The position numbers and the translations under genes were made by a program. 42,715 nucleotides of DNA, from the sequence record SRR20825019_986; one strand, written 5' to 3'. The notes under the pieces were generated by a model. The model did no database searches, was not told the origin of the DNA, and worked only from the letters and a program-made list of their open reading frames with translations. Positions 32,982-42,641 of the stretch are shown piece after piece (position 1 is the stretch's first letter; every line of letters begins with the position of its first letter).

Positions 32982-34166
32982 TTAGTTGAACTGATATTTT
33001 GAGATGATGCTCTTGAGCCGTAGTTTAAGGTCCTCACCTGCATCGTAGACCATTTGTTCGTTGGAAGGGAAAGGTACTTCCCTTGCGTTCAGGTACAACA
33101 TTAAATCGTCCTCCAAAGCTCTTTTGTCACCTTGGTAATTGGCGAAAATATGCTCGAAAAAGAACTCACTAGATAGGGGATAGGAGTTGATTACCTGCCC
33201 GTTCCGTAAATCCGTGAAACTAACCTTTGCACCGATTTGTGCGGTTTTAGTTTGTGTAAACTGAAACAATTTACAGGTTACCGTGCGCATCTTGTCAATT
33301 TTTATCTTGTTCCCCAAGCTATCTTTTACGACGTTGCCTTCGCGGTCTAAAAGATATTCCCAGCCATCTTTGATTTGTCTTTCTTTGATGACTTGTGTCT
33401 CATTGATACGCTCTGGCGATACATTGATTTCCATAAAATCAAGATTCATCGCATAATCATATTTTACATTGGCCAAAGGAGTGGTATGGTATTGCAACCA
33501 GAAGTTGTCGATTCCAAAGGCATTAAAATCCAAAAGTTCGGATTCCAAACGTTCTGGAATGATCTGCTGTGTTTGATTAGCAATATCCACCCTTACAAAT
33601 TCGAGTCCCTTGTTATAGGCTTCATCCATTTTGGATACAGTTTCCCTGTAGCCTGGATTTATTTCCTGCAAATATTTTAAATCTTCGTAGGCTGTTCTGT
33701 AATCTGCCTTGTATTTTGCGGAAGCCAACAGATTGGAGGCGTTTTGGTACAGATGTTCGGAAAAATCATCCTTAGTGTTCAAAATGCTGTTGTCGTAGTC
33801 CACAAAATTGAACTCGGCCGTTCTGCCTTCATCTTCAATATACAACGGCAATAGTGGCCTGATGCGCTGTTGAATCTGTTTTAATTGTAAATATTTGTTG
33901 TAGATAGTCTCCAAGTTGGCCGGGTTCCCATCATTTTGAAGAAAAGCAATTTCCTGCTGTTCCCTAGCGGCATTTTTGGCAAATGCTTCTTCCAAAAGGA
34001 TAATGTATTCCTGATGCCCTTTCTTGGTTTTGTTCTCGGCCAAATTCTTAATGGCCTTGTTCATGGCGGTGGAATAATTCCCCGTATTCAAGGCCTCTTG
34101 TGTTTTCTTTACGCCACTGCAAGCGCTTAAAACTATAATTGTGGTTAAGAGTAAAAGTTTTTTCAT
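32982..34166 (-). CDS. Hypothetical lipoprotein (helical N-terminal part, beta-rich C-terminal part)
   Basis: Long ORF; MKK plus hydrophobic stretch plus LSAC lipobox. Confidence 0.75.
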   Translation of the reverse strand: MKKLLLLTTIIVLSACSGVKKTQEALNTGNYSTAMNKAIKNLAENKTKKGHQEYIILLEEAFAKNAAREQQEIAFLQNDGNPANLETIYNKYLQLKQIQQRIRPLLPLYIEDEGRTAEFNFVDYDNSILNTKDDFSEHLYQNASNLLASAKYKADYRTAYEDLKYLQEINPGYRETVSKMDEAYNKGLEFVRVDIANQTQQIIPERLESELLDFNAFGIDNFWLQYHTTPLANVKYDYAMNLDFMEINVSPERINETQVIKERQIKDGWEYLLDREGNVVKDSLGNKIKIDKMRTVTCKLFQFTQTKTAQIGAKVSFTDLRNGQVINSYPLSSEFFFEHIFANYQGDKRALEDDLMLYLNAREVPFPSNEQMVYDAGEDLKLRLKSIISKYQFN

Positions 34167-34198
34167 ATTGGTCAACTTTATGGTTGTTTAGGGGGAAT

Positions 34199-34214: not shown

Positions 34215-34417
34215 AAATCCTCATCCTATTAACGAAAAAGGTGATATTGTAGTATATCTTCAATAAAAACCCTTTTAAATGGAGGGCTGTACAGGATTTG
34301 ATTTTTTCACAGAATTGTTAATTGCCGTTTAATAAAATTACATCTCAACCTTATTTTTATAGATGGAAATCCCCTTTCAATTCGTAATTTTACGCCCTTA
34401 ATTAAACAATGGGCAAC

Positions 34418-35692
34418 ATGCAACGAGACCAGAAGATTTTTGAACTTATAGCACAAGAAAAGGAAAGACAGTTGGAGGGTATTGAACTAATAGCTTCCGA
34501 AAACTTTGTAAGTCCGCAAGTAATGGAGGCTGCAGGCTCCGTGCTTACGAACAAATATGCCGAAGGATATCCCGGAAAGCGCTATTATGGCGGTTGCGAA
34601 GTTGTTGACCAAGTGGAACAATTGGCCATTGATCGTGCCAAGGAACTTTTTGGGGCAGCTTATGCTAATGTACAGCCCCACTCGGGTTCACAGGCCAATG
34701 CATCTGTTTACCATGCCTGTCTGAATGCAGGAGATAAAATTTTAGGTTTTGATTTGTCCCATGGAGGGCATTTGACCCACGGTTCACCCGTAAATTTCTC
34801 CGGGAAATTGTACAATCCGGTTTTTTATGGGGTTGATGAGGAGACCGGCATGTTGAACTACGACAAAATTCAGGAGATTGCGGACAAGGAAAAGCCCAAA
34901 TTGATCATTGCCGGTGCTTCGGCCTATTCAAGGGATATGGACTTTAAACGATTCCGTGAGATTGCAGATAGTGTCGGTGCTATTTTGTTGGCCGATATTT
35001 CGCATCCGGCTGGTTTGATAGCCAAAGGTATTTTGAACGATCCCATTCCACATTGCCATATTGTTACCACAACTACCCATAAAACCCTACGTGGCCCACG
35101 TGGCGGTCTTATTTTGATGGGAGAGAATTTTGATAATCCATTCGGCATCAAACTAAAGAATGGAAACTTGAGAAAAATGTCAGCTTTGTTGGATTTGGCT
35201 GTGTTCCCAGGGAATCAAGGAGGACCTTTGGAGCACATCATCGCTGCCAAGGCCATTGCCTTTGGCGAAGCACTTACCGATGACTATTTGCACTACATGG
35301 TTCAAGTGAAAAAGAACGCTGCTGCCATGGCCAAAGCTTTTATGGACAGGGATTACAAAGTAATTTCCGGAGGTACGGACAATCATATGATGCTGATAGA
35401 CCTACGGAACAAAGATATTTCTGGTAAAGAAGCGGAAGAGGTATTGGTAAAAGCCGACATTACTGCGAACAAGAATATGGTGCCTTTTGATGATAAATCA
35501 CCGTTCATCACCTCTGGAATCCGTTTTGGTACTTCAGCCATTACCACTAGAGGTCTCAAGGAGGCGGATATGGAGACGGTTGTGGGCTTTATTGATGAGA
35601 TCATCACCGATGCAGGGAATGAGAAGAAGGTAGCTGAAATAAAACAAAAGGTCAACGACTTGATGAAATCGCGACCTTTGTTCAGTGCTTAG
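34418..35692 (+). CDS. glyA: Serine hydroxymethyltransferase
   Basis: [44 protein letters not shown]. Start may be 34409. Confidence 0.97.
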
Positions 35693-35709: not shown

Positions 35710-36375
35710 TTATTCGAAGAGGAATATGCTTTCCTCGTAAAATTTCTTTTGTTGGAGAGAATAGATCAAGGCTTCGTGCTCTTGGTTCCCTTTATCAAAA
35801 TATAGCCCCCAGTAATTATCATAGCTGGTCTCTATATTCACCTTGAAAGGGTCGTCTTCTATGGATGTGTCCTCAAAAACCGGCACAAAAATTTCATAAG
35901 GCATTTCAGTCAATCCTTTGGTAAAATAAACAAAGTGTTTGCCAACTAATGTCAATATATTGCTTGCATGCTCGGGAATACTATGTCTGTACAATCTCGA
36001 AATGATTATTGAAGTATCTTTAAAATGCATCGAAAGCTCCATAATATCAGTTGGATAGGCACTCTTTTGGTTAAGCACTTGAAGTGCTTTGTTAAGAGAG
36101 GAAGAAATGTTGGAACGGCTTTCCTCGGCAAAGTTATACCCGCCCCAATCGCCATTGTTGAAATGCCTTAAGCATTCGGCAATTCCAAAATTGTGAAACA
36201 AATCTATAATAAGGTCCGTTCTATTGTTTAGGGAATCGTGTTTGCACTTTACTTTTGCGGTCGCAAAAAAATACTTTTCTAGAACTCTAAGAAAATCGTC
36301 CAGTCCATCTGTGGCCTCATAGGTTTTTGGACCAGCGTACTTATAATTTTTTTTTGATCTATTTGAAGATGACAT
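35710..36375 (-). CDS. Hypothetical cytoplasmic protein, terminal gene of the regulatory module
   Basis: 221-aa ORF with no signal peptide or recognisable motif; has its own promoter-like region. Confidence 0.75.
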   Translation of the reverse strand: MSSSNRSKKNYKYAGPKTYEATDGLDDFLRVLEKYFFATAKVKCKHDSLNNRTDLIIDLFHNFGIAECLRHFNNGDWGGYNFAEESRSNISSSLNKALQVLNQKSAYPTDIMELSMHFKDTSIIISRLYRHSIPEHASNILTLVGKHFVYFTKGLTEMPYEIFVPVFEDTSIEDDPFKVNIETSYDNYWGLYFDKGNQEHEALIYSLQQKKFYEESIFLFE

Positions 36376-36443
36376 GTGGTGTTGATTGAATTCTTATATT
36401 CTTTCAACATAAAGTTAGGATGAATCTTTTGCATGGGATTACA

Positions 36444-36476
36444 GATTATCCTTAAAAATTCTAGGGTTTTCCCCTT
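36444..36476 (-). promoter_or_regulatory. Shared 33-bp regulatory motif, copy 1
   Basis: 26/33 identical to 40771-40803; starts 27 nt from a -7-like TAACTTTA (36410-36417). Confidence 0.65.
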
Positions 36477-36555
36477 GTTTGTAAGATTTTTTTGAAAAAA
36501 ATATTGAAAACGAACCACAGAATCGAGTTGAGGCCAATTTTTTGGACAGTGATCA

Positions 36556-37224
36556 CTAAATAAAACCTCTGTTTTTTGCAGCCAATATAAGGGCCAGATC
36601 ATTTTCGTTCTCTGTTCCGAATAGGGTCTTTAAATGGCGTTTTCTGTTTTCAATGGAAGAGGGGGAAAGCCTGATAAACTTCTCAAGGTCTTTGTTCTTG
36701 GTTCCTTTGGATAAATGATAAAGAATTTGTTTATCCTTCTCATCGATTTCTATATCATTGGCCATTTTCTTTCTAATGGCACCAAGAGCTTTTGAAGAAT
36801 AATACGGTGGGTCCAACATTATGGTCTTGACCGCATCTTCAAGTGTTTTGGGGTCAATATCAGTCTTTACCAAATACCCGTCCGGGTCAACTGATTTTAA
36901 GATACTATTGATTCTGAAATTGTCACTAAAAGAAGACATGAAAACGATTTTGCTACTGGGCACAATCTTACGCGCCAAAATCCCCAAATCTTCACCTGTG
37001 TAGGGTTGATCTTCGTTCGGGGCGAACAATTGTACATCCAAGAACAAAATATCATACTGAAAGGTACTCACTGAATCCTCTATGAGCTTTTTGCCCGCAT
37101 GATAGGAAGTCGCCGTATCCACAATAATGTTATAGCCGTCAAAATTAATGCTCTCCAGTATAAATTTATACCCGAGCATAGTCATTTCGTGGTCGTCTAT
37201 GGCCAGTATTCTCAATGTTTTCAT
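36556..37224 (-). CDS. NarL/LuxR-type response regulator
   Basis: LAIDDH, ILFLDVQL (phospho-Asp), FMSS, GYLVK; C-terminal LuxR-like HTH. Alternative start at 37260 overlaps the kinase stop. Confidence 0.9.
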   Translation of the reverse strand: MKTLRILAIDDHEMTMLGYKFILESINFDGYNIIVDTATSYHAGKKLIEDSVSTFQYDILFLDVQLFAPNEDQPYTGEDLGILARKIVPSSKIVFMSSFSDNFRINSILKSVDPDGYLVKTDIDPKTLEDAVKTIMLDPPYYSSKALGAIRKKMANDIEIDEKDKQILYHLSKGTKNKDLEKFIRLSPSSIENRKRHLKTLFGTENENDLALILAAKNRGFI

Positions 37225-37252
37225 GGTAGGTTCTATTATTGTATCTGGGGAA

Positions 37253-39340
37253 CTAAGCATTTATTAATTTATGTTCTTCAGGTGTTTTTACATCCGTATA
37301 TTTTGCGGGGATTAGAATTTTAATAGAAGTTCCCTGGCCCCGTTTACTGTCAATATCCAGAGTTCCTTTTATTTTTTTGACCCTTGAAACAATATTCCTA
37401 AGGCCAATTCCTTTTTTCTTTTTGTTTACATCAAAGCCAACGCCATCATCTGTAATGATCAACTTTAACTTATCGTCCATAGCATGGAACGATATGGTAA
37501 CATGTTGACTTTTGGCATGTTTTACACAGTTTTTCAGCGATTCTTGAATAATCCTGTAAGCATTGATCTTAATGTCCCCCAATAAATCGTCCCAATGTAT
37601 TTCAGGGTCATAAGTAAAGGAACACGTAATGCCCGAAGATTTTTCAATCTCCACGATCATGTTTTCAAGAGACACAATAAAATTATGAAATTTTTTGTAC
37701 GCCGCATGGTTCAGTTCGTGCGAAATGGTTCTGATTTCTTCTTCCAGCTCTTGCAGTTTTTCGATAAGCCCAGCTCGTTGCTGTATGGAAGCTGGGTCAT
37801 CACGTTCGTTGAGTCCACTTAAAATGAGGCGTATTCCCAGCATTTCACCCAATATCCCGTCGTGTAGTTCTTCGGAAATCCGTTTTTGTTCCAATTGCTT
37901 CCCTTCCTCGAACTTACCTTGTTGAGAAAGTAGGAGGTTGTAAATTTCTTGGTTGCTTTCCTGTTGCTTTTGCTTAAATTTTAACTGATTGTTGTTTACG
38001 TACAACGAAACCATGAGCATGAACCCTACACCGAAGATAATCAGTAATATAGCGGAGTATACCCACACCTGCTTTTCTTTGGTCAGGATTTGGTTTTCCT
38101 CGATAATTTCGTCCGTTTCCAATCGTATCCGTGCAAATTTGTCTCTCTTGGTGCGTTCTTCCTCGCTTATGGTTTCATTTAATTGATAGTATTCTTCGGC
38201 ATAGGCAGATGCTTTGGCAGTATCAAGCTTCGTTAATAGTTTTAGCGCATCCAACGAACGGTCGTTGTTATAAGTTTCTCTAGCTATGGCGTAGGACTCT
38301 TTGGCCTGGGCAATGGCTTGTACGGTATCTCCTTTTGTGGCCAATACTTCGGCGTAGTAGTAATGGAGCCTAGCCTGATCATAGAGATCTCCGGTTGCAG
38401 AGTTCATTGTAAAGGCCTCCCTTAAAAGTTCTTCAGCTTTTTCGATATTCTTATCAGCTTTGAGAAGGGAAAACGCATAACTTCCAATTGCTTTTTCGTA
38501 AGTCTGCGGTAAACTCTCTTTTAATTCATGGTTAGCTAGTAATTCAACGAACGCCTCTTTGGCCTTTTCAAAATTCTCCTCATTGAGATAGGTGCTGGCA
38601 ATATTATTTTGGATTTTCCATATTAATTGGGTTTTATTTTCTCTATTCGATTTTGCAATATAGTCCTTCGCTTTTTCATAAGACTCTATTGCCTTTGAGC
38701 TATTACCCAACCCATTGGCCAAAATACCCAACACATTGTATGCATTATATAATCGATAATCATCTCCCAGGTCATCAAAGATTTCTATGGCGGCTGTGGC
38801 ACTGGCTTCCCCGCCCAAATAATCCTTATAGGAATCCTGGACCCTGGCCATACCGTAAAACATTCTTGCCATTAGCGATTGAGAAGTTGAATCCTTTGGT
38901 AGCTTTTCAAAATTTTCCAAAGCTTTTCGATAATGGTAAAATGCACTGTCCATGACTCCTTCATTTTCCATGAATGAGGCAAGGTCCCAATAAGAGTACC
39001 CTAATATCTTGTTGGCCTTTACTTTTTTGGATAATCTTAAGAGTTCAGCATTCGATTTTCTAAAACCCAAGGAGTCCTTTAACTTCATATAGGTTAGTGA
39101 AACCTGCGAGAGCTGTTCCAGTTTGGTGGTGTCGGATGACATTGCTAACACCTTGGCTTCAGCATCTCTTAGATACGCTTTGCGGTCTTCGAGGGACAAT
39201 TCCTTGGAGGTTTTGGCAATATTCAATAGTTCTTGGATGGTATTTACCTCGGGGTTAGAGGTAACATTTTTCTCTTTTGGCCGTTGCTGGGAGCATCCCA
39301 AAAGAAGTATGCTTATTAGTATAAGTATTCCGTTTTTCAA
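37253..39340 (-). CDS. TPR-repeat sensor histidine kinase (HisKA_3 type) with lipoprotein-like N-terminus
   Basis: LLLGC lipobox, TPR-like repeats, single TM (VWVYSAILLIIFGVGFMLMVSLYV), RISEELHDG, QESLKNCVKHA, DDGVGF, GIGL; TTG start. Confidence 0.9.
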   Translation of the reverse strand: MKNGILILISILLLGCSQQRPKEKNVTSNPEVNTIQELLNIAKTSKELSLEDRKAYLRDAEAKVLAMSSDTTKLEQLSQVSLTYMKLKDSLGFRKSNAELLRLSKKVKANKILGYSYWDLASFMENEGVMDSAFYHYRKALENFEKLPKDSTSQSLMARMFYGMARVQDSYKDYLGGEASATAAIEIFDDLGDDYRLYNAYNVLGILANGLGNSSKAIESYEKAKDYIAKSNRENKTQLIWKIQNNIASTYLNEENFEKAKEAFVELLANHELKESLPQTYEKAIGSYAFSLLKADKNIEKAEELLREAFTMNSATGDLYDQARLHYYYAEVLATKGDTVQAIAQAKESYAIARETYNNDRSLDALKLLTKLDTAKASAYAEEYYQLNETISEEERTKRDKFARIRLETDEIIEENQILTKEKQVWVYSAILLIIFGVGFMLMVSLYVNNNQLKFKQKQQESNQEIYNLLLSQQGKFEEGKQLEQKRISEELHDGILGEMLGIRLILSGLNERDDPASIQQRAGLIEKLQELEEEIRTISHELNHAAYKKFHNFIVSLENMIVEIEKSSGITCSFTYDPEIHWDDLLGDIKINAYRIIQESLKNCVKHAKSQHVTISFHAMDDKLKLIITDDGVGFDVNKKKKGIGLRNIVSRVKKIKGTLDIDSKRGQGTSIKILIPAKYTDVKTPEEHKLINA

Positions 39341-39373
39341 ACTGATTTAGTTCGTTTATATATCCAAGGTAAC

Positions 39374-39406
39374 AAAAAAAGCCCCAAATTTTTAGTGTTT
39401 GGGGCT
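39374..39406 (-). terminator. Rho-independent terminator after the two small ORFs
   Basis: Minus strand AGCCCCAAA-loop-TTTGGGGCT followed by TTTTTT. Confidence 0.8.
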
Positions 39407-39428
39407 GAGTTGTATGTTCAATATCAAT

Positions 39429-39668
39429 TTAAAGTTCCCGACTATCGTTGACAGTTTGCTCTAATCTGATTATGCTGTGTTTTAAAAATCCGGCATGCAC
39501 CTGATATTTAAGTAACTTTCTTTGATAATGCTTTAGATTCTCGTTTTTATTTAGGGACGTATAGTTATTTTGTATTGATGATTCGTCCTTTTGATTAAAA
39601 AGCAAAATTAACAAAACGGGAATTAAAGCTATATTTCGTACTAAGTTGGTTATTGTATTACAATCCAT
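39429..39668 (-). CDS. Small hypothetical protein with an N-terminal hydrophobic segment
   Basis: 79-aa ORF; ATG 10 nt after the peptide gene stop; IALIPVLLILLF stretch; ends just before the terminator. Confidence 0.5.
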   Translation of the reverse strand: MDCNTITNLVRNIALIPVLLILLFNQKDESSIQNNYTSLNKNENLKHYQRKLLKYQVHAGFLKHSIIRLEQTVNDSREL

Positions 39669-39677
39669 TTATGATTA

Positions 39678-39848
39678 TTAATTGTCACCACGACCATCTT
39701 GCTCAGATACTTCACCATCAGTTGCATTTTGATCTACTGTCAATTGCTCGAACATTGCTTCGGTGTCCTGTACATCTGTTTCGGCTTCACAAGAGTAGAA
39801 TCCAACTGTTAGTAATGCCACTGCTAAAATGCTAAGTAATTTTTTCAT
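39678..39848 (-). CDS. 56-aa secreted lipopeptide, candidate signalling-peptide precursor
   Basis: Manual translation: MKKLLSILAVALLTVGFYSCEAETDVQDTEAMFEQLTVDQNATDGEVSEQDGRGDN; clear SPII-type signal; below the ORF-track size cutoff. Confidence 0.85.
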   Translation of the reverse strand: MKKLLSILAVALLTVGFYSCEAETDVQDTEAMFEQLTVDQNATDGEVSEQDGRGDN

Positions 39849-39985
39849 AATGATAAGTTTTGGTATGAATATTAAGTTTATGCAGCTAAAGTACAGGGCA
39901 TTTTAAGCCAAGGAAGTATATATCTAAAGGGAGTAGTATTCTAAGGAAGTCTGTTAGAATTATGCGGTAATCTGCAAGAATTTTG

Positions 39986-40720
39986 CTAATTAAGGGCTTT
40001 TGTCACTGTTTTGGAGAGCATTTCTTTCAATTGATCCACCTTGTCTTTGTAAGTTTTGGAAAACGGGAGTTCCTCTTCTTCTCCTTGATTTAGGCTACAA
40101 ATGGACTTGCCGTAATTGATACGGGAAACATAGCGACTATTAAGAATATAGCTCTGGTGCACGCGTATGAAATCCTTTGGAAGTTTATCCTCGAAAGATT
40201 TCAAGGTTTTAAAGGCACTTATCACGGTACCATCCTTCATGTAGAAATCCGTGGTGTTGTTGTCGGATTTAAGATAAAGGATGTTTTTGGTATCCAAATA
40301 CCTATAGTCCTTATAAGATTTAAGGCAAATGGTAGATGGAGTATCTTGTTTTGGATACAGTTTTCTTAATCTTAGTATTGTCTTTCTCACATCAAACTCA
40401 TTGTGCGGTAGAATCCAATAATCAAAAAAACCACTCTTAATGGCATTGTAAGCGTACTGCTTGGTCTTTGCATACCCTATTATAATAGGAAGCGTTTGCA
40501 TGTACTGGTTCAGTTCCGTTACCATCTGAAAGTAATCCATACCATCTTCACCAAGGTTGATGAGCACCAAATCCGGATTATATTTTAAAATAGAATTGAG
40601 TCCAGCGGAAGCCGTGGTGTCCACACCTGCACATACCAAATCTTCGTACTCATCCAAATAGAGTTGTAGTTGAAGCTTTGAGGTCGCATCGGAGTCGATT
40701 ATGTTGTAGGTGTATTCCAT
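39986..40720 (-). CDS. LytTR-family regulator with a degenerate (pseudo) receiver domain
   Basis: LytTR motifs ILYLKSDNNTT, FIRVHQSYILN, LPFSKTY; receiver lacks the canonical Asp and Lys. Start 40720 or 40726. Confidence 0.88.
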   Translation of the reverse strand: MEYTYNIIDSDATSKLQLQLYLDEYEDLVCAGVDTTASAGLNSILKYNPDLVLINLGEDGMDYFQMVTELNQYMQTLPIIIGYAKTKQYAYNAIKSGFFDYWILPHNEFDVRKTILRLRKLYPKQDTPSTICLKSYKDYRYLDTKNILYLKSDNNTTDFYMKDGTVISAFKTLKSFEDKLPKDFIRVHQSYILNSRYVSRINYGKSICSLNQGEEEELPFSKTYKDKVDQLKEMLSKTVTKALN

Positions 40721-40770
40721 GTGCAATTTGCTGATTGCAAGTTACTAACGCACAAAAAAAACTCATTGCA

Positions 40771-40803
40771 GTTTTCCCTTAAAAAAACTATGGGTTTCCC
40801 CTT
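40771..40803 (-). promoter_or_regulatory. Shared 33-bp regulatory motif, copy 2
   Basis: 26/33 identical to 36444-36476; starts 27 nt from a -7-like TAACTTGC (40737-40744). Confidence 0.65.
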
Positions 40804-41119
40804 AAATCGAGCTATTTTCCTACACTTTTCCCTAAAAAATCGTTAAAACAGATTTAATTGTAAATTTTCACCTCATCTTTTTGGAAGGCTTGAACGTAAA
40901 AAAATGGTTGTTTCAACAAGTATTGGAATTTAGGAAAATAGGGAAGGTAAAATGGTCAAGGTTGCGTGTAATAGGTTCAACAAATAGGTTTAGTTTACGT
41001 TTGGTTCACTACTATATTACGATTTGTTGTCCCGGTTACAAAATTTTTGACAAGTGTATTTTAGGATATAGGGCTATATTTCGATGAAATACAGCATCTT
41101 ACAGAGGTTTGGCCGGGGT

Positions 41120-41512
41120 TTAGTCCATGAAAAGGGCCTCAATGTCTTCTGGAACGCGTTTAGGACGAAAGGTTTTGGCGTCCAATAAGCACCATTCCGT
41201 AGCCGCTTTTACCAAGAGTTCACCTGTAGTTTTATTTTTGATTTCCACCACCCTCGTAGAAATAGGGCCTTTGTTGCTTTTGATATAAGTTTTCAGTAAG
41301 ATGGTGTTTCCCAACACGGCCGATTTATGATAAGTAATATTATGGTTCCTTACAACCCAAATCATGGATTGTTGGATTTCTTCGGAGGTAACATGTTTCC
41401 AATGTTTTTTGGAAATATCCTGAATCCATTCTACATACCGAATATTGTTTACATGGTTCAGGTCGTCCAAATCGCTCGGGACTACATCAAAAACTTGGGA
41501 ATAGGTCTTCAT
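41120..41512 (-). CDS. Acyl-CoA thioesterase (4HBT/YbgC hot-dog fold)
   Basis: DLDDLNHVNNIRY motif. Confidence 0.9.
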   Translation of the reverse strand: MKTYSQVFDVVPSDLDDLNHVNNIRYVEWIQDISKKHWKHVTSEEIQQSMIWVVRNHNITYHKSAVLGNTILLKTYIKSNKGPISTRVVEIKNKTTGELLVKAATEWCLLDAKTFRPKRVPEDIEALFMD

Positions 41513-42555
41513 TACTCTTTTTTACGGATTTTGACCTCAAAAAGCCTGTCCCAGTTTTTGCCAGTCACAAAAAAGGTTTCTCTTTCTGGGTGATAGGCCA
41601 CTCCATTCAACACAGAATTGCCTTCGTCCCATTCCGGTCCCTTGTTCACCTTGTTTTTGAGCCCCCCAAAGTTGATGACGCCCTCAATGGCCCCTGATGT
41701 GGCATCTATGATCATCATACTTTCCTTTTGGTAAACATTGGCATAGATTTTACCATTTACGTACTCTAGCTCGTTGGCCATATTAAAAATGGATTTGTTG
41801 GTGGCCGTTTCAATATAGCCTTGTTCTTCCAATGTTTCTGGGTCAAGAAGCCATATTTTCTCAGTGCCGTCGCTTTTGAAGATTTTGCTGCCATCGTTGC
41901 AAAGGCCCCATCCTTCGCGGCTTTTACCATAGGTAAAGTTTTTGATTTTCTCCAGATTGGATATGTCGTAAACAAAACCCATCCCGCTTTGCCAGGTAAG
42001 CTGGTAAAGCTTATCATTCATTATGGTAATGCCCTCCCCAAATATGGTGTTGTCCATATCGATTTGCTGAAGGATTTCGCCAGTCTCAAAATTTAGTTTT
42101 CTAACGGAGGAACCGCCTCTTTTCCCTGTGCTTTCGTACAATGTCCCATTATTAAATTCCAAACCTTGGGTGTAGGCACCGGTATCATGGGGGTAACTAT
42201 CAACAATCTCATAGGTGTATACTTCTGGCGCGGATGCGGCCAGCAACCTCATATCCTTCTCAACTTCTACAGTTTGGTCCTCAATTTTGAACTTGGCCAC
42301 CAAGGTTTTGTTGCCTAGAGTAGGTAGGTCCAAGGTCAATTTTCCATTTTCAATGGCCAGTTCCTTTCCATCCATATAATAATGTAGGTCGGAAATTTCG
42401 ATGTCCTTTTTGTTCTTTAGGGCAACACCTACTTGTTGGTTTTGCTGTATCGCTTTGTTTTCCAATTGAATGGAAAAATGTTTGGCAGGGTCGGCACTCC
42501 CTCCGCATGCTAAAAAGAAGAGCAATGCCCCTGAGATGGAAAATAATTTACCCAT
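41512..42555 (-). CDS. Glutaminyl-peptide cyclotransferase (lipoprotein, plant-type beta-propeller)
   Basis: LAC lipobox; YTQGL, LYESTG, FGEGIT, EGWGL, NELE, VLNGVAY, TGKNW. Confidence 0.92.
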   Translation of the reverse strand: MGKLFSISGALLFFLACGGSADPAKHFSIQLENKAIQQNQQVGVALKNKKDIEISDLHYYMDGKELAIENGKLTLDLPTLGNKTLVAKFKIEDQTVEVEKDMRLLAASAPEVYTYEIVDSYPHDTGAYTQGLEFNNGTLYESTGKRGGSSVRKLNFETGEILQQIDMDNTIFGEGITIMNDKLYQLTWQSGMGFVYDISNLEKIKNFTYGKSREGWGLCNDGSKIFKSDGTEKIWLLDPETLEEQGYIETATNKSIFNMANELEYVNGKIYANVYQKESMMIIDATSGAIEGVINFGGLKNKVNKGPEWDEGNSVLNGVAYHPERETFFVTGKNWDRLFEVKIRKKE

Positions 42556-42641
42556 TGTTCTTATTGCTTGTGTCATAAATCGTTAATCGTGAAACACCGA
42601 AATTAAGAATCAATTGGGATTGCCACAAATATAAAAGGTCG

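Follow-up and report, generated by a model that had tools for sequence, protein, structure and literature searches.

Does the small secreted peptide that is encoded between a LytTR-type regulator and a TPR-containing histidine kinase in sequence record SRR20825019_986 serve as the signal for that kinase? The window analyzed here, a single stretch of 42,715 nucleotides, carries six open reading frames (ORFs) within positions 35710-40835, which code for the LytTR regulator, a 56-amino-acid (aa) peptide precursor, a 79-aa product, the sensor kinase, a NarL-type response regulator, and a 221-aa protein. An earlier interpretation of the letters alone, which we call the sequence-only reading, had proposed a peptide-sensing module here, and its account of the layout holds, with every ORF in its place and all six co-oriented on the minus strand between glyA (34409-35692, plus strand) and a thioesterase gene (41120-41512). 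We interpret the locus as an autoregulated, peptide-linked two-component circuit that is kept at one site in a subclade of the Flavobacteriaceae, and we judge the case for and against this interpretation to be evenly balanced.

The sequence-only reading had named in advance the outcome that would speak against it, absence of the peptide gene beside the kinase gene in relatives. The gene is present between the LytTR and kinase genes at 57/57 loci with a readable interval (59 loci were gathered, 2 of them cut at a contig end), and the idea has not been refuted. Within the genus Flagellimonas/Allomuricauda/Muricauda, to which the names on peptide homologues point, a kinase orthologue was found in 36/36 genomes at 47-81% identity. 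At 30 loci from this genus, all of them syntenic, the LytTR gene is present in 28, the peptide gene in 29, the regulator gene in 30, and the 221-aa gene in 28, with each missing gene falling at a cut locus end, and the regulator is 79-97% identical across them. Beyond the genus we sampled the family by taking a single genome for each of 200 further genera, of which 130 contain a kinase homologue at E <=1e-40, and the best 29 of these loci show the same gene order (LytTR in 28, peptide in 28, regulator in 29, 221-aa gene in 27). The 221-aa gene, which occurs in 31/200 of these genera and adjoins the kinase gene in the two genomes compared by coordinates (G102 and G137), was found in 0/278 genomes from other families of the phylum and marks the full module. 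The full module is kept in about a sixth of the sampled Flavobacteriaceae genera, and kinase-peptide pairs are more widespread.

The chromosomal setting is equally stable. In 19/20 extended loci, five from the window's own genus and the rest from other Flavobacteriaceae genera, the same flanks recur, with glutaminyl cyclase and thioesterase genes on one side and glyA on the other. The module had been described as visibly AT-richer than its flanks, and its G+C content is indeed lower than the genome mean (0.379 versus 0.417), but the difference is modest, placing it at the 6.7th percentile among 5.1-kb windows. The suspicion that it is an AT-rich insertion is not borne out by the constancy of site and flanks, and the module is ancient, vertically inherited at one chromosomal site, and not an island.

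Remoter homologues of the kinase (27-35% identity) lie in other chromosomal contexts, and 18/20 of them have a small signal-peptide ORF directly upstream, according to a script filter that keeps short ORFs having a basic residue in the N-terminal part together with a hydrophobic stretch. Most of these upstream ORFs are acidic and carry an A-T-G-D-like motif. A NarL-type regulator gene is found at 20/20 of the remoter loci and a LytTR gene at 11/20; four loci hold a different, basic peptide class, and at these tblastn found no LytTR gene. The products of the basic class (L093, L094, L096, and L100), which adjoin TPR kinases, have a signal-peptidase-I-like end (…TVSG) and a basic C-terminus. In one genome (G139), four or five such TPR kinases are arranged in tandem.

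Because codon-position differences among close relatives follow the pattern 0.165/0.098/0.391, the 56-aa ORF appears to be a real, translated gene under selection. Its product begins with a lipoprotein-type signal sequence, MKKLLSILAVALLTVGFYSC (…LTVGFYSC), and continues with an ETEAMFEQL motif, the core ATDGEVSEQDGR, and an acidic tail, so that the part beyond the signal is very acidic. The family shares this plan, with a signal of the form MKKxxSILA…GxxSC, a short ETxAL(F/Y)E segment, a core A-T-D-G-(D/E)-x4-5-D-x-R, and a short acidic tail. In 4/57 precursors (L036, L041, L053, and L057), the leader is single but the core, and only the core, occurs in 3 to 6 tandem copies; these four lie scattered on the kinase tree. 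The lipobox Cys is absent in 8/57 precursors, which keep the signal peptide together with a recognizable core or its CxxC variant. This variant, in which the core T and the second D of T-D-x-D are jointly replaced by C..C, is seen at two separate places of the kinase tree, a clade and a further single lineage, and 55/57 precursors have an Arg within their last 12 residues. The multiplied cores, the Cys-less precursors that retain a core, the joint CxxC swap, and the Arg near the C-terminus all point to a processed peptide and not to a folded protein.

Neither small ORF of the module (56-aa or 79-aa) has a Pfam match, and in NCBIfam the 56-aa peptide has sub-threshold matches only, such as that to PG1828 family lipoprotein (NF050142), which reaches 23.3 bits against a cut-off of 50 over residues 1-41, the signal and the start of the mature part; 31/53 members of the peptide family match this model weakly (best E 1e-5). 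A profile search with the peptide returned 324 homologues. Among the 120 of these that were listed, no Pfam domain occurs, the named ones are almost all called hypothetical, uncharacterized, or secreted protein, and three rows bear one of the generic JGI names for lipoproteins, LolB or LpoB.

In Pfam and NCBIfam, the kinase shows TPR_12, HisKA_3, and HATPase_c domains, and NCBIfam adds a LiaS match at 84 bits. Its lipobox reads LLLGC, with Cys16 at least 90% conserved, and its one membrane helix starts at residue 425; the 408-aa sensor before this helix therefore has to lie outside the cytoplasm. That agrees with the sequence-only reading, which had assigned the kinase an extracytoplasmic TPR-like sensor, as does the AlphaFold2 model of this region (pLDDT 90.3), in which some 18 helices are arranged as a solenoid. 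Among solved folds, the TPRs of LGN/Pins come nearest (E ~1e-9), with the Rap/NprR peptide receptors at E 1e-6 to 1e-7, and the likeness to peptide-binding TPRs is generic to TPR solenoids. Co-folding of sensor residues 17-424 with peptide residues 20-56 gave a score of 0.55, and one unrelated-peptide control gave 0.70 in a tool that did not use our own alignments, a result that speaks neither for nor against binding.

The response regulator has NCBIfam matches to MctR, MadR, and NarP and belongs by family type to NarL/MctR/VraR. Its receiver is canonical, with the DD pair, the Asp in ILFLD, and the Lys, and VraR is its closest relative of solved structure, the acceptor Asp aligning in the two proteins. 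The longest ORF for this protein (36556-37260) overlaps the stop codon of the kinase gene, and a start at Met13 (37224) is likely because orthologues are mostly 222 aa.

The LytTR protein is built differently. Its LytTR domain scores 59.8 bits in Pfam, and Response_reg reaches 23.6 bits, under the cut-off of 30.2. Aligned to the NtrC receiver, the acceptor Asp is replaced by Asn and the conserved Lys by Leu. The acceptor site of the orthologues, which are 242-246 aa in length, is occupied by N (49) or H (6), such that 55/55 are without Asp. In 12 LytTR proteins outside this main orthologue set, from eleven of the 20 remoter loci and from L060, the site holds D (3), E (3), N (5), or T (1). The three with Glu (L086, L088, and L102) may carry a possible phospho-mimic. 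The description of this protein as a pseudo-regulator, made from the letters alone, is thus apt for its Asp-less receiver, but it does not look passive: with phased repeats at the peptide promoter, it has the look of a transcriptional relay that connects that promoter to the kinase pathway.

Two kinds of conserved DNA element suggest how such a relay could be wired (Table 1). The first, which we call O1, precedes both the first and the last gene of the module, as the sequence-only reading had noticed; the two copies are identical at 31/39 positions and the motif is kept at both promoters across the genus. In other genera, it takes the form of a palindrome, AAAACCATAG-N5-CTATGGTTTT, with the general form AAACC-N13-GGTTT. 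An idea that O1 is a 23-nt direct repeat for the LytTR protein was discarded because other genera show the palindrome. A loose version of the pattern (AAnCC-N11-15(AT-rich)-GG) is present in 45/50 regions upstream of LytTR genes and in 52/55 upstream of 221-aa genes, compared with 130/5000 random 130-nt windows of the genome (2.6%). NarL-family regulators bind inverted repeats.

A profile search of the genome recovered six O1 copies, two of them being the module promoters. The four others (nhmmer E 3e-10 to 9e-7; loci L081-L083) lie at C53:2798-2867, C53:1630-1693, C1:173986-174033, and C6:259-304. The C1 copy is upstream of a 510-aa animal-haem-peroxidase-like gene, the two C53 copies are near small lipoprotein-like ORFs (177 and 106 aa) and an AAA_17 kinase-like/PIN-like gene pair, and the C6 copy sits on a 686-bp contig that may be a collapsed repeat. 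Together these four copies may represent a possible regulon of the module. The spacing of 20 nt from operator to promoter box is found at 4/6 copies. The leaders past the C1 (L082, near 173900) and C6 (L083) copies also share a further stretch (…CTCCAA…TTAACTTCCTACA…TCCCCC…).

The second kind of element precedes the peptide gene, where direct repeats follow each other in a 21-nt phase. Across 51 loci, self-identity at lag 21 in this region is 0.512, compared with 0.21-0.30 at lags 15-27, and the maximum in 200 shuffles was 0.303. Across the 4.4-Mb genome, the repeat pair is unique. LytTR regulators recognize direct repeats of 9-10 bp at a spacing of about 12 bp, and we propose these phased repeats as candidate LytTR binding sites. 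The Bacteroidetes -7 promoter consensus is TAnnTTTG, and the box of the peptide gene is kept as TAnnTTAG/TAnnTTGG in the genus loci and in other genera; a sigma-70 scan was uninformative because this bacterial group uses other promoter boxes. An ACTTCC repeat in the peptide leader of the window turned out not to be conserved.

The peptide was first described as encoded just upstream of the kinase. The peptide is there, but the 79-aa ORF and a hairpin followed by a U-run intervene. This hairpin (39373-39406) has a predicted energy of -16.9 kcal/mol (z = -3.47), and a hairpin with a T-run lies between the peptide and kinase genes in 57/57 loci by a count made without a background control, or in 34/57 under strict perfect-stem rules. 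The stem sequence varies between genera and the hairpin is kept. A consensus terminator scan missed it because the loop limit of that scan is 8 and the loop here is 9 nt. With its run of seven U residues, the element resembles an intrinsic terminator, which would end the peptide transcript before the kinase gene. Past the T-run, a TAnCTTG-type box is found in all genera shown and at 31/34 of the strictly called terminators, and we propose that the window's version, TACCTTGG, is a separate promoter for the kinase and regulator genes.

Taken together, tandem cores, loss of the Cys with the core kept, the phased-repeat promoter, and the hairpin with its T-run fit a processed peptide that would feed back on its own synthesis. 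In the circuit that we favor, the 56-aa precursor would be exported by its Sec/lipoprotein-type signal peptide, and its acidic C-terminal core (A-T-D-G-D/E-x4-5-D-x-R), free or tethered, would bind to the periplasmic TPR solenoid as its ligand; both the ligand role and the release of the peptide we infer from the sequences. The kinase would then phosphorylate the NarL-type regulator, which as a phosphorylated dimer would bind the palindrome AAACC-N13-GGTTT and activate the genes for the LytTR and 221-aa proteins along with at least four further promoters of the genome. Since the LytTR protein has lost the phospho-acceptor Asp, its activity would be set by its abundance and not by phosphorylation. 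By binding the three 21-bp-phased repeats, it would raise peptide synthesis and so close a positive feedback loop, with a separate promoter, placed after the terminator that ends the peptide transcript, serving the kinase and regulator genes. In the terms of the sequence-only reading, which had proposed a peptide-sensing circuit with a TPR receptor kinase, the conserved peptide (57/57), its recurrence at remoter loci (18/20), and the feedback-like promoter are what stands, and binding, release, and action from cell to cell are proposals. What the sequences themselves establish is the set of genes and their conservation, both operator types, the hairpin with its T-run, and the Asp-less receiver.

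Several observations weigh against this circuit, or at least against its outermost steps. All of the evidence for it is computational, and which protein binds which operator we infer from family habits only. Among the locus ORFs, neither the ORF list nor Pfam reveals a protease, exporter, or importer gene for the peptide. The lipobox Cys is kept in 49/57 precursors, and the peptide may for that reason stay membrane-tethered and not diffuse. A released peptide of 11-16 residues would need to re-cross the outer membrane before it could meet a periplasmic sensor. Acidic and of low complexity, with a net charge of -2 to -34, the mature part could be a spacer or a cation binder. At 2/20 of the remoter kinase loci, the script filter found no small signal-peptide ORF upstream, and the same is true of the only other TPR/HisKA_3 kinase in the window's genome, a 652-aa protein with 24% identity that is paired with a NarL-type regulator (L002, C1:520247-524659). 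Co-variation between peptide and sensor gave a partial Mantel r of 0.51 within the genus, was reversed over all 53 sequences, and fell to 0.17 with one sequence per genus, a value reached by 265/2000 permutations and not significant; it cannot be told apart from shared ancestry. Our search of the sensor columns yielded none that follows the CxxC variant. Finally, metatranscriptome contigs from two marine runs of one study cover the two small ORFs at 99+% identity (39423-39845 and 39612-39834) and hint at expression, but DNA carry-over may account for them, and coverage is not confined to these two ORFs but includes other parts of the module. RNA runs X1 and X3 were rejected as an expression signal, their contigs being 8-21 kb long and 90-95% identical, which indicates a relative, and looking like DNA; uncovered stretches in runs X4 and X6 carry no information on expression.

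If the peptide stays on the membrane, it could be a sentinel lipoprotein, an accessory sensor, comparable to RcsF or NlpE of enterobacteria, through which the TPR kinase of the same cell would learn about the state of the envelope or of lipoprotein sorting, and the module would then be an envelope-stress or surface-state circuit. The lipobox Cys in 49/57 precursors, the lipobox that the kinase too possesses, and the lack of export, processing, or import genes among the locus ORFs all favor this explanation. The kinase and regulator also fall into the HisKA_3/NarL group with LiaS (84 bits) and VraR (the nearest solved regulator), a group that senses envelope stress through accessory proteins. 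A tethered sentinel is nevertheless hard to reconcile with the 8/57 precursors that have lost the Cys and kept the core, and tandem cores, which are seen in 4 lineages, would be odd in a structural co-sensor. Its gene would moreover be on a separate, terminated transcript with its own phased-repeat promoter and not co-transcribed with the kinase gene, and positive feedback on a stress sentinel would be unusual. We regard this explanation as unlikely, though one to be taken seriously.

The peptide could instead be purely an output, with the kinase sensing something else and the peptide (for example, a surface cation-binding or protective factor) and the 221-aa protein being regulated products whose adjacency reflects regulon membership. 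Its gene does lie behind regulated promoters, other O1 promoters in the genome also precede small lipoprotein-like ORFs, and the D/E/T/G-rich core with its frequent Pro loosely recalls calcium-binding acidic loops. A calcium-binding or TSP_3-like reading of the core, however, is without support from Pfam, in which even the repeated forms have no such match up to E = 5, and a mere product would not be expected wedged between the LytTR regulator and the kinase in 57/57 loci, nor beside diverged kinases each with its own peptide class (18/20); we consider an output-only role quite improbable. Hardly credible, in our judgment, is the absence of any functional link, with a conserved but unrelated small ORF, or in part an annotation artefact, hitch-hiking in a stable neighborhood. 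The whole region is syntenic, glyA, thioesterase, and glutaminyl cyclase included, and synteny alone is weak evidence of function because the flanking genes share it. Against a hitch-hiker stand the coding signature and the 324 homologues, the conserved dedicated promoter that ties the peptide gene to the adjacent LytTR gene, and the recurrence of the pairing at non-syntenic homologue loci.

Returning to the autoregulated peptide-linked circuit, a wider proposal is that the Flavobacteriaceae possess a family of genuine peptide-pheromone systems, of which this module would be the first recognized member. Sec-exported pro-peptides, some with multiple cores, would be cut to short acidic peptides and sensed by periplasmic TPR kinases, diverged pairs (including the basic class and the tandem kinase arrays) would constitute separate "languages," and the Asp-less LytTR protein would be the autoinduction relay. 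This we put forward tentatively, and we would sooner expect it to fail than to hold.

How does the proposed circuit compare with known systems? ComQXPA of Bacillus subtilis (ComX, ComP, ComA) likewise combines a peptide gene with a HisKA_3-class kinase and a NarL/LuxR-type regulator, and the ComA box is palindromic, as is O1 of the module. The sensor of the module is a 408-aa periplasmic TPR solenoid with a lipobox anchor, whereas ComP has a polytopic membrane domain; ComP senses ComX according to an excerpt of PMC8895600. The module precursor also differs in its Sec/lipoprotein signal, and the module adds an Asp-less LytTR relay and a Gram-negative Bacteroidota host; no ORF or Pfam match in 35710-41120 corresponds to a ComQ-type isoprenyl transferase.

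The Agr/ComCDE/Pln/Blp systems resemble the module in that a small precursor gene adjoins the kinase gene (57/57 loci) and in the combination of a LytTR protein with phased repeats (~21-bp period) before the peptide gene, an autoinduction layout. In contrast to Agr/Com, the module's LytTR protein is without the acceptor Asp (N or H, 55/55) and is probably not the partner of the kinase, which is of the HisKA_3 type with a TPR domain and one membrane helix and not of the polytopic HPK10 type. Nor do the ORFs of the module locus and their Pfam matches include AgrB, a double-glycine leader, or a C39-peptidase ABC exporter. In the RRNPP systems (Rap, NprR, PlcR, PrgX, and Rgg), as in the module, a TPR solenoid (here the presumed receptor) is encoded beside a Sec-exported pro-peptide. 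RRNPP receptors are cytoplasmic, HTH-fused or phosphatases, and bind re-imported peptides, whereas the TPR domain of the module is extracytoplasmic by prediction and fused to a histidine kinase; they need peptide re-import by an oligopeptide permease, which a periplasmic sensor would not. The best structural matches of the sensor are generic TPRs (LGN/Pins) and not RRNPP proteins.

LiaFSR and VraSR belong to the same kinase and regulator families as the module, and the RcsF and NlpE sentinels share with it the idea of a small lipoprotein informing a kinase. Unlike LiaFSR/VraSR, the module locus has no LiaF-like ORF and its kinase has a large periplasmic domain in place of an intramembrane-sensing loop, and unlike LiaFSR, RcsF, and NlpE, it encodes a small protein whose cores are multiplied and whose gene is under a separate autoinduction promoter. 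In the HdrRM/BrsRM LytTR regulatory systems, a receiver-less LytTR regulator is encoded beside a membrane inhibitor; the LytTR protein of the module keeps a degenerate receiver fold, and the hydrophobic N-termini of the adjacent small ORFs look more like cleaved signals than like membrane inhibitors. The module is closest to ComQXPA by protein families, to Agr/Com/Pln by promoter logic, and to RRNPP by receptor fold. It works like ComQXPA, Agr/Com, and RRNPP but fails defining features of each and is a member of none.

Two products of the module remain outside this comparison. At the position of the 79-aa ORF, a hydrophobic N-terminus and a C-terminal D-x-R-x-L are found in most genus loci, the conserved C-terminus being NDxRxL. 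By tblastn, the ORF is detected in 18/30 genus loci at 25-63% identity; it is absent from the shorter LytTR-kinase intervals of other genera and was seen in this genus only. Codon-position differences of 0.438/0.340/0.522 give a weak coding signature. It probably codes for a second, fast-evolving secreted small protein, and, with low confidence, we suggest that it may be a diverged second copy of the peptide gene. The 221-aa protein has no match in Pfam or NCBIfam. Its AlphaFold2 model has a pLDDT of 75.9, for which the best Foldseek E is 0.019, the best VIA-align Z is 3.6, and the protein atlas offers no usable match. An "ATDG" in its N-terminus is due to chance, only G24, L25, and F28 being conserved there.

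Table 1. Features of the module and its promoters in the window (positions of the whole 42,715-nt stretch)
Feature	Position	Strand	Remark
LytTR regulator	39986-40720/40726	-	likely start ATG at 40720
56-aa precursor peptide	39678-39848	-	lipoprotein-type signal, acidic remainder
79-aa ORF	39429-39668	-	small ORF between peptide gene and kinase gene
TPR/HisKA_3 sensor kinase, 695 aa	37253-39340	-	Pfam and NCBIfam
NarL/VraR-type response regulator	36556-37224/37260	-	likely start Met13 of the long ORF (37224)
221-aa cytoplasmic protein without a family match	35710-36375	-	proposed to be co-regulated via O1
Operator O1 (LytTR gene)	40765-40803	-	degenerate form of the palindrome AAACC-N13-GGTTT
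-7-like box TAACTTGC (LytTR gene)	40737-40744	-	20 nt past the CTGCAAT end of operator O1
Three direct repeats, AAAATTCTnnCAGA type, 21-nt phase	39929-39984	-	between LytTR stop codon and peptide gene
-7-like box TACTTTAG (own promoter of the peptide gene)	39886-39893	-	kept across loci
Terminator-like hairpin and U7	39373-39406	-	9-bp stem, 9-nt loop; between peptide and kinase genes
-7-like box TACCTTGG (proposed kinase/regulator promoter)	39363-39370	-	directly past the terminator
TPR solenoid of the kinase (residues 17-424)	38069-39292	-	periplasmic, predicted
Operator O1 (221-aa gene)	36438-36476	-	followed, 20 nt on, by TAACTTTA at 36410-36417

The neighborhood of the module holds further genes. 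The glutaminyl cyclase gene (41512-42576; Glu_cyclase_2, E 8e-91) and the thioesterase gene, which is acyl-ACP-thioesterase-like (41120-41512), are syntenic with the module in 19/20 loci. Upstream of glyA, a 397-aa lipoprotein-like ORF (…LSACSG…; window 32982-34175) is without a Pfam match. In 13/20 extended loci (L066-L069, L071-L078, and L080), a gene for a 506-519-aa lipoprotein (…SSCRKDF…FSKDTVFLDTVF…YRLNVDG), also without a Pfam match, lies between the thioesterase and LytTR genes; it is missing there in the window and its five closest relatives.

Peptide-based cell-cell signaling is textbook knowledge for Firmicutes. In Bacteroidota it is undescribed as far as our literature search reached; titles and abstract openings contained no description of the module's architecture in this phylum, and further papers may exist. 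In the excerpted text of PMC8895600, the listed hosts of the Com and Agr pathways do not include Bacteroidetes, and the LytTR locus in the part of PMC10197871 that we consulted is unrelated to the module. Two operators and a short core motif make the hypothesis directly testable. If it is true, an extracytoplasmic TPR kinase would join the known kinds of peptide receptor, Asp-less LytTR "pseudo-regulators" would gain a function, and marine flavobacteria, major degraders of algal matter, would gain a communication or self-sensing system.

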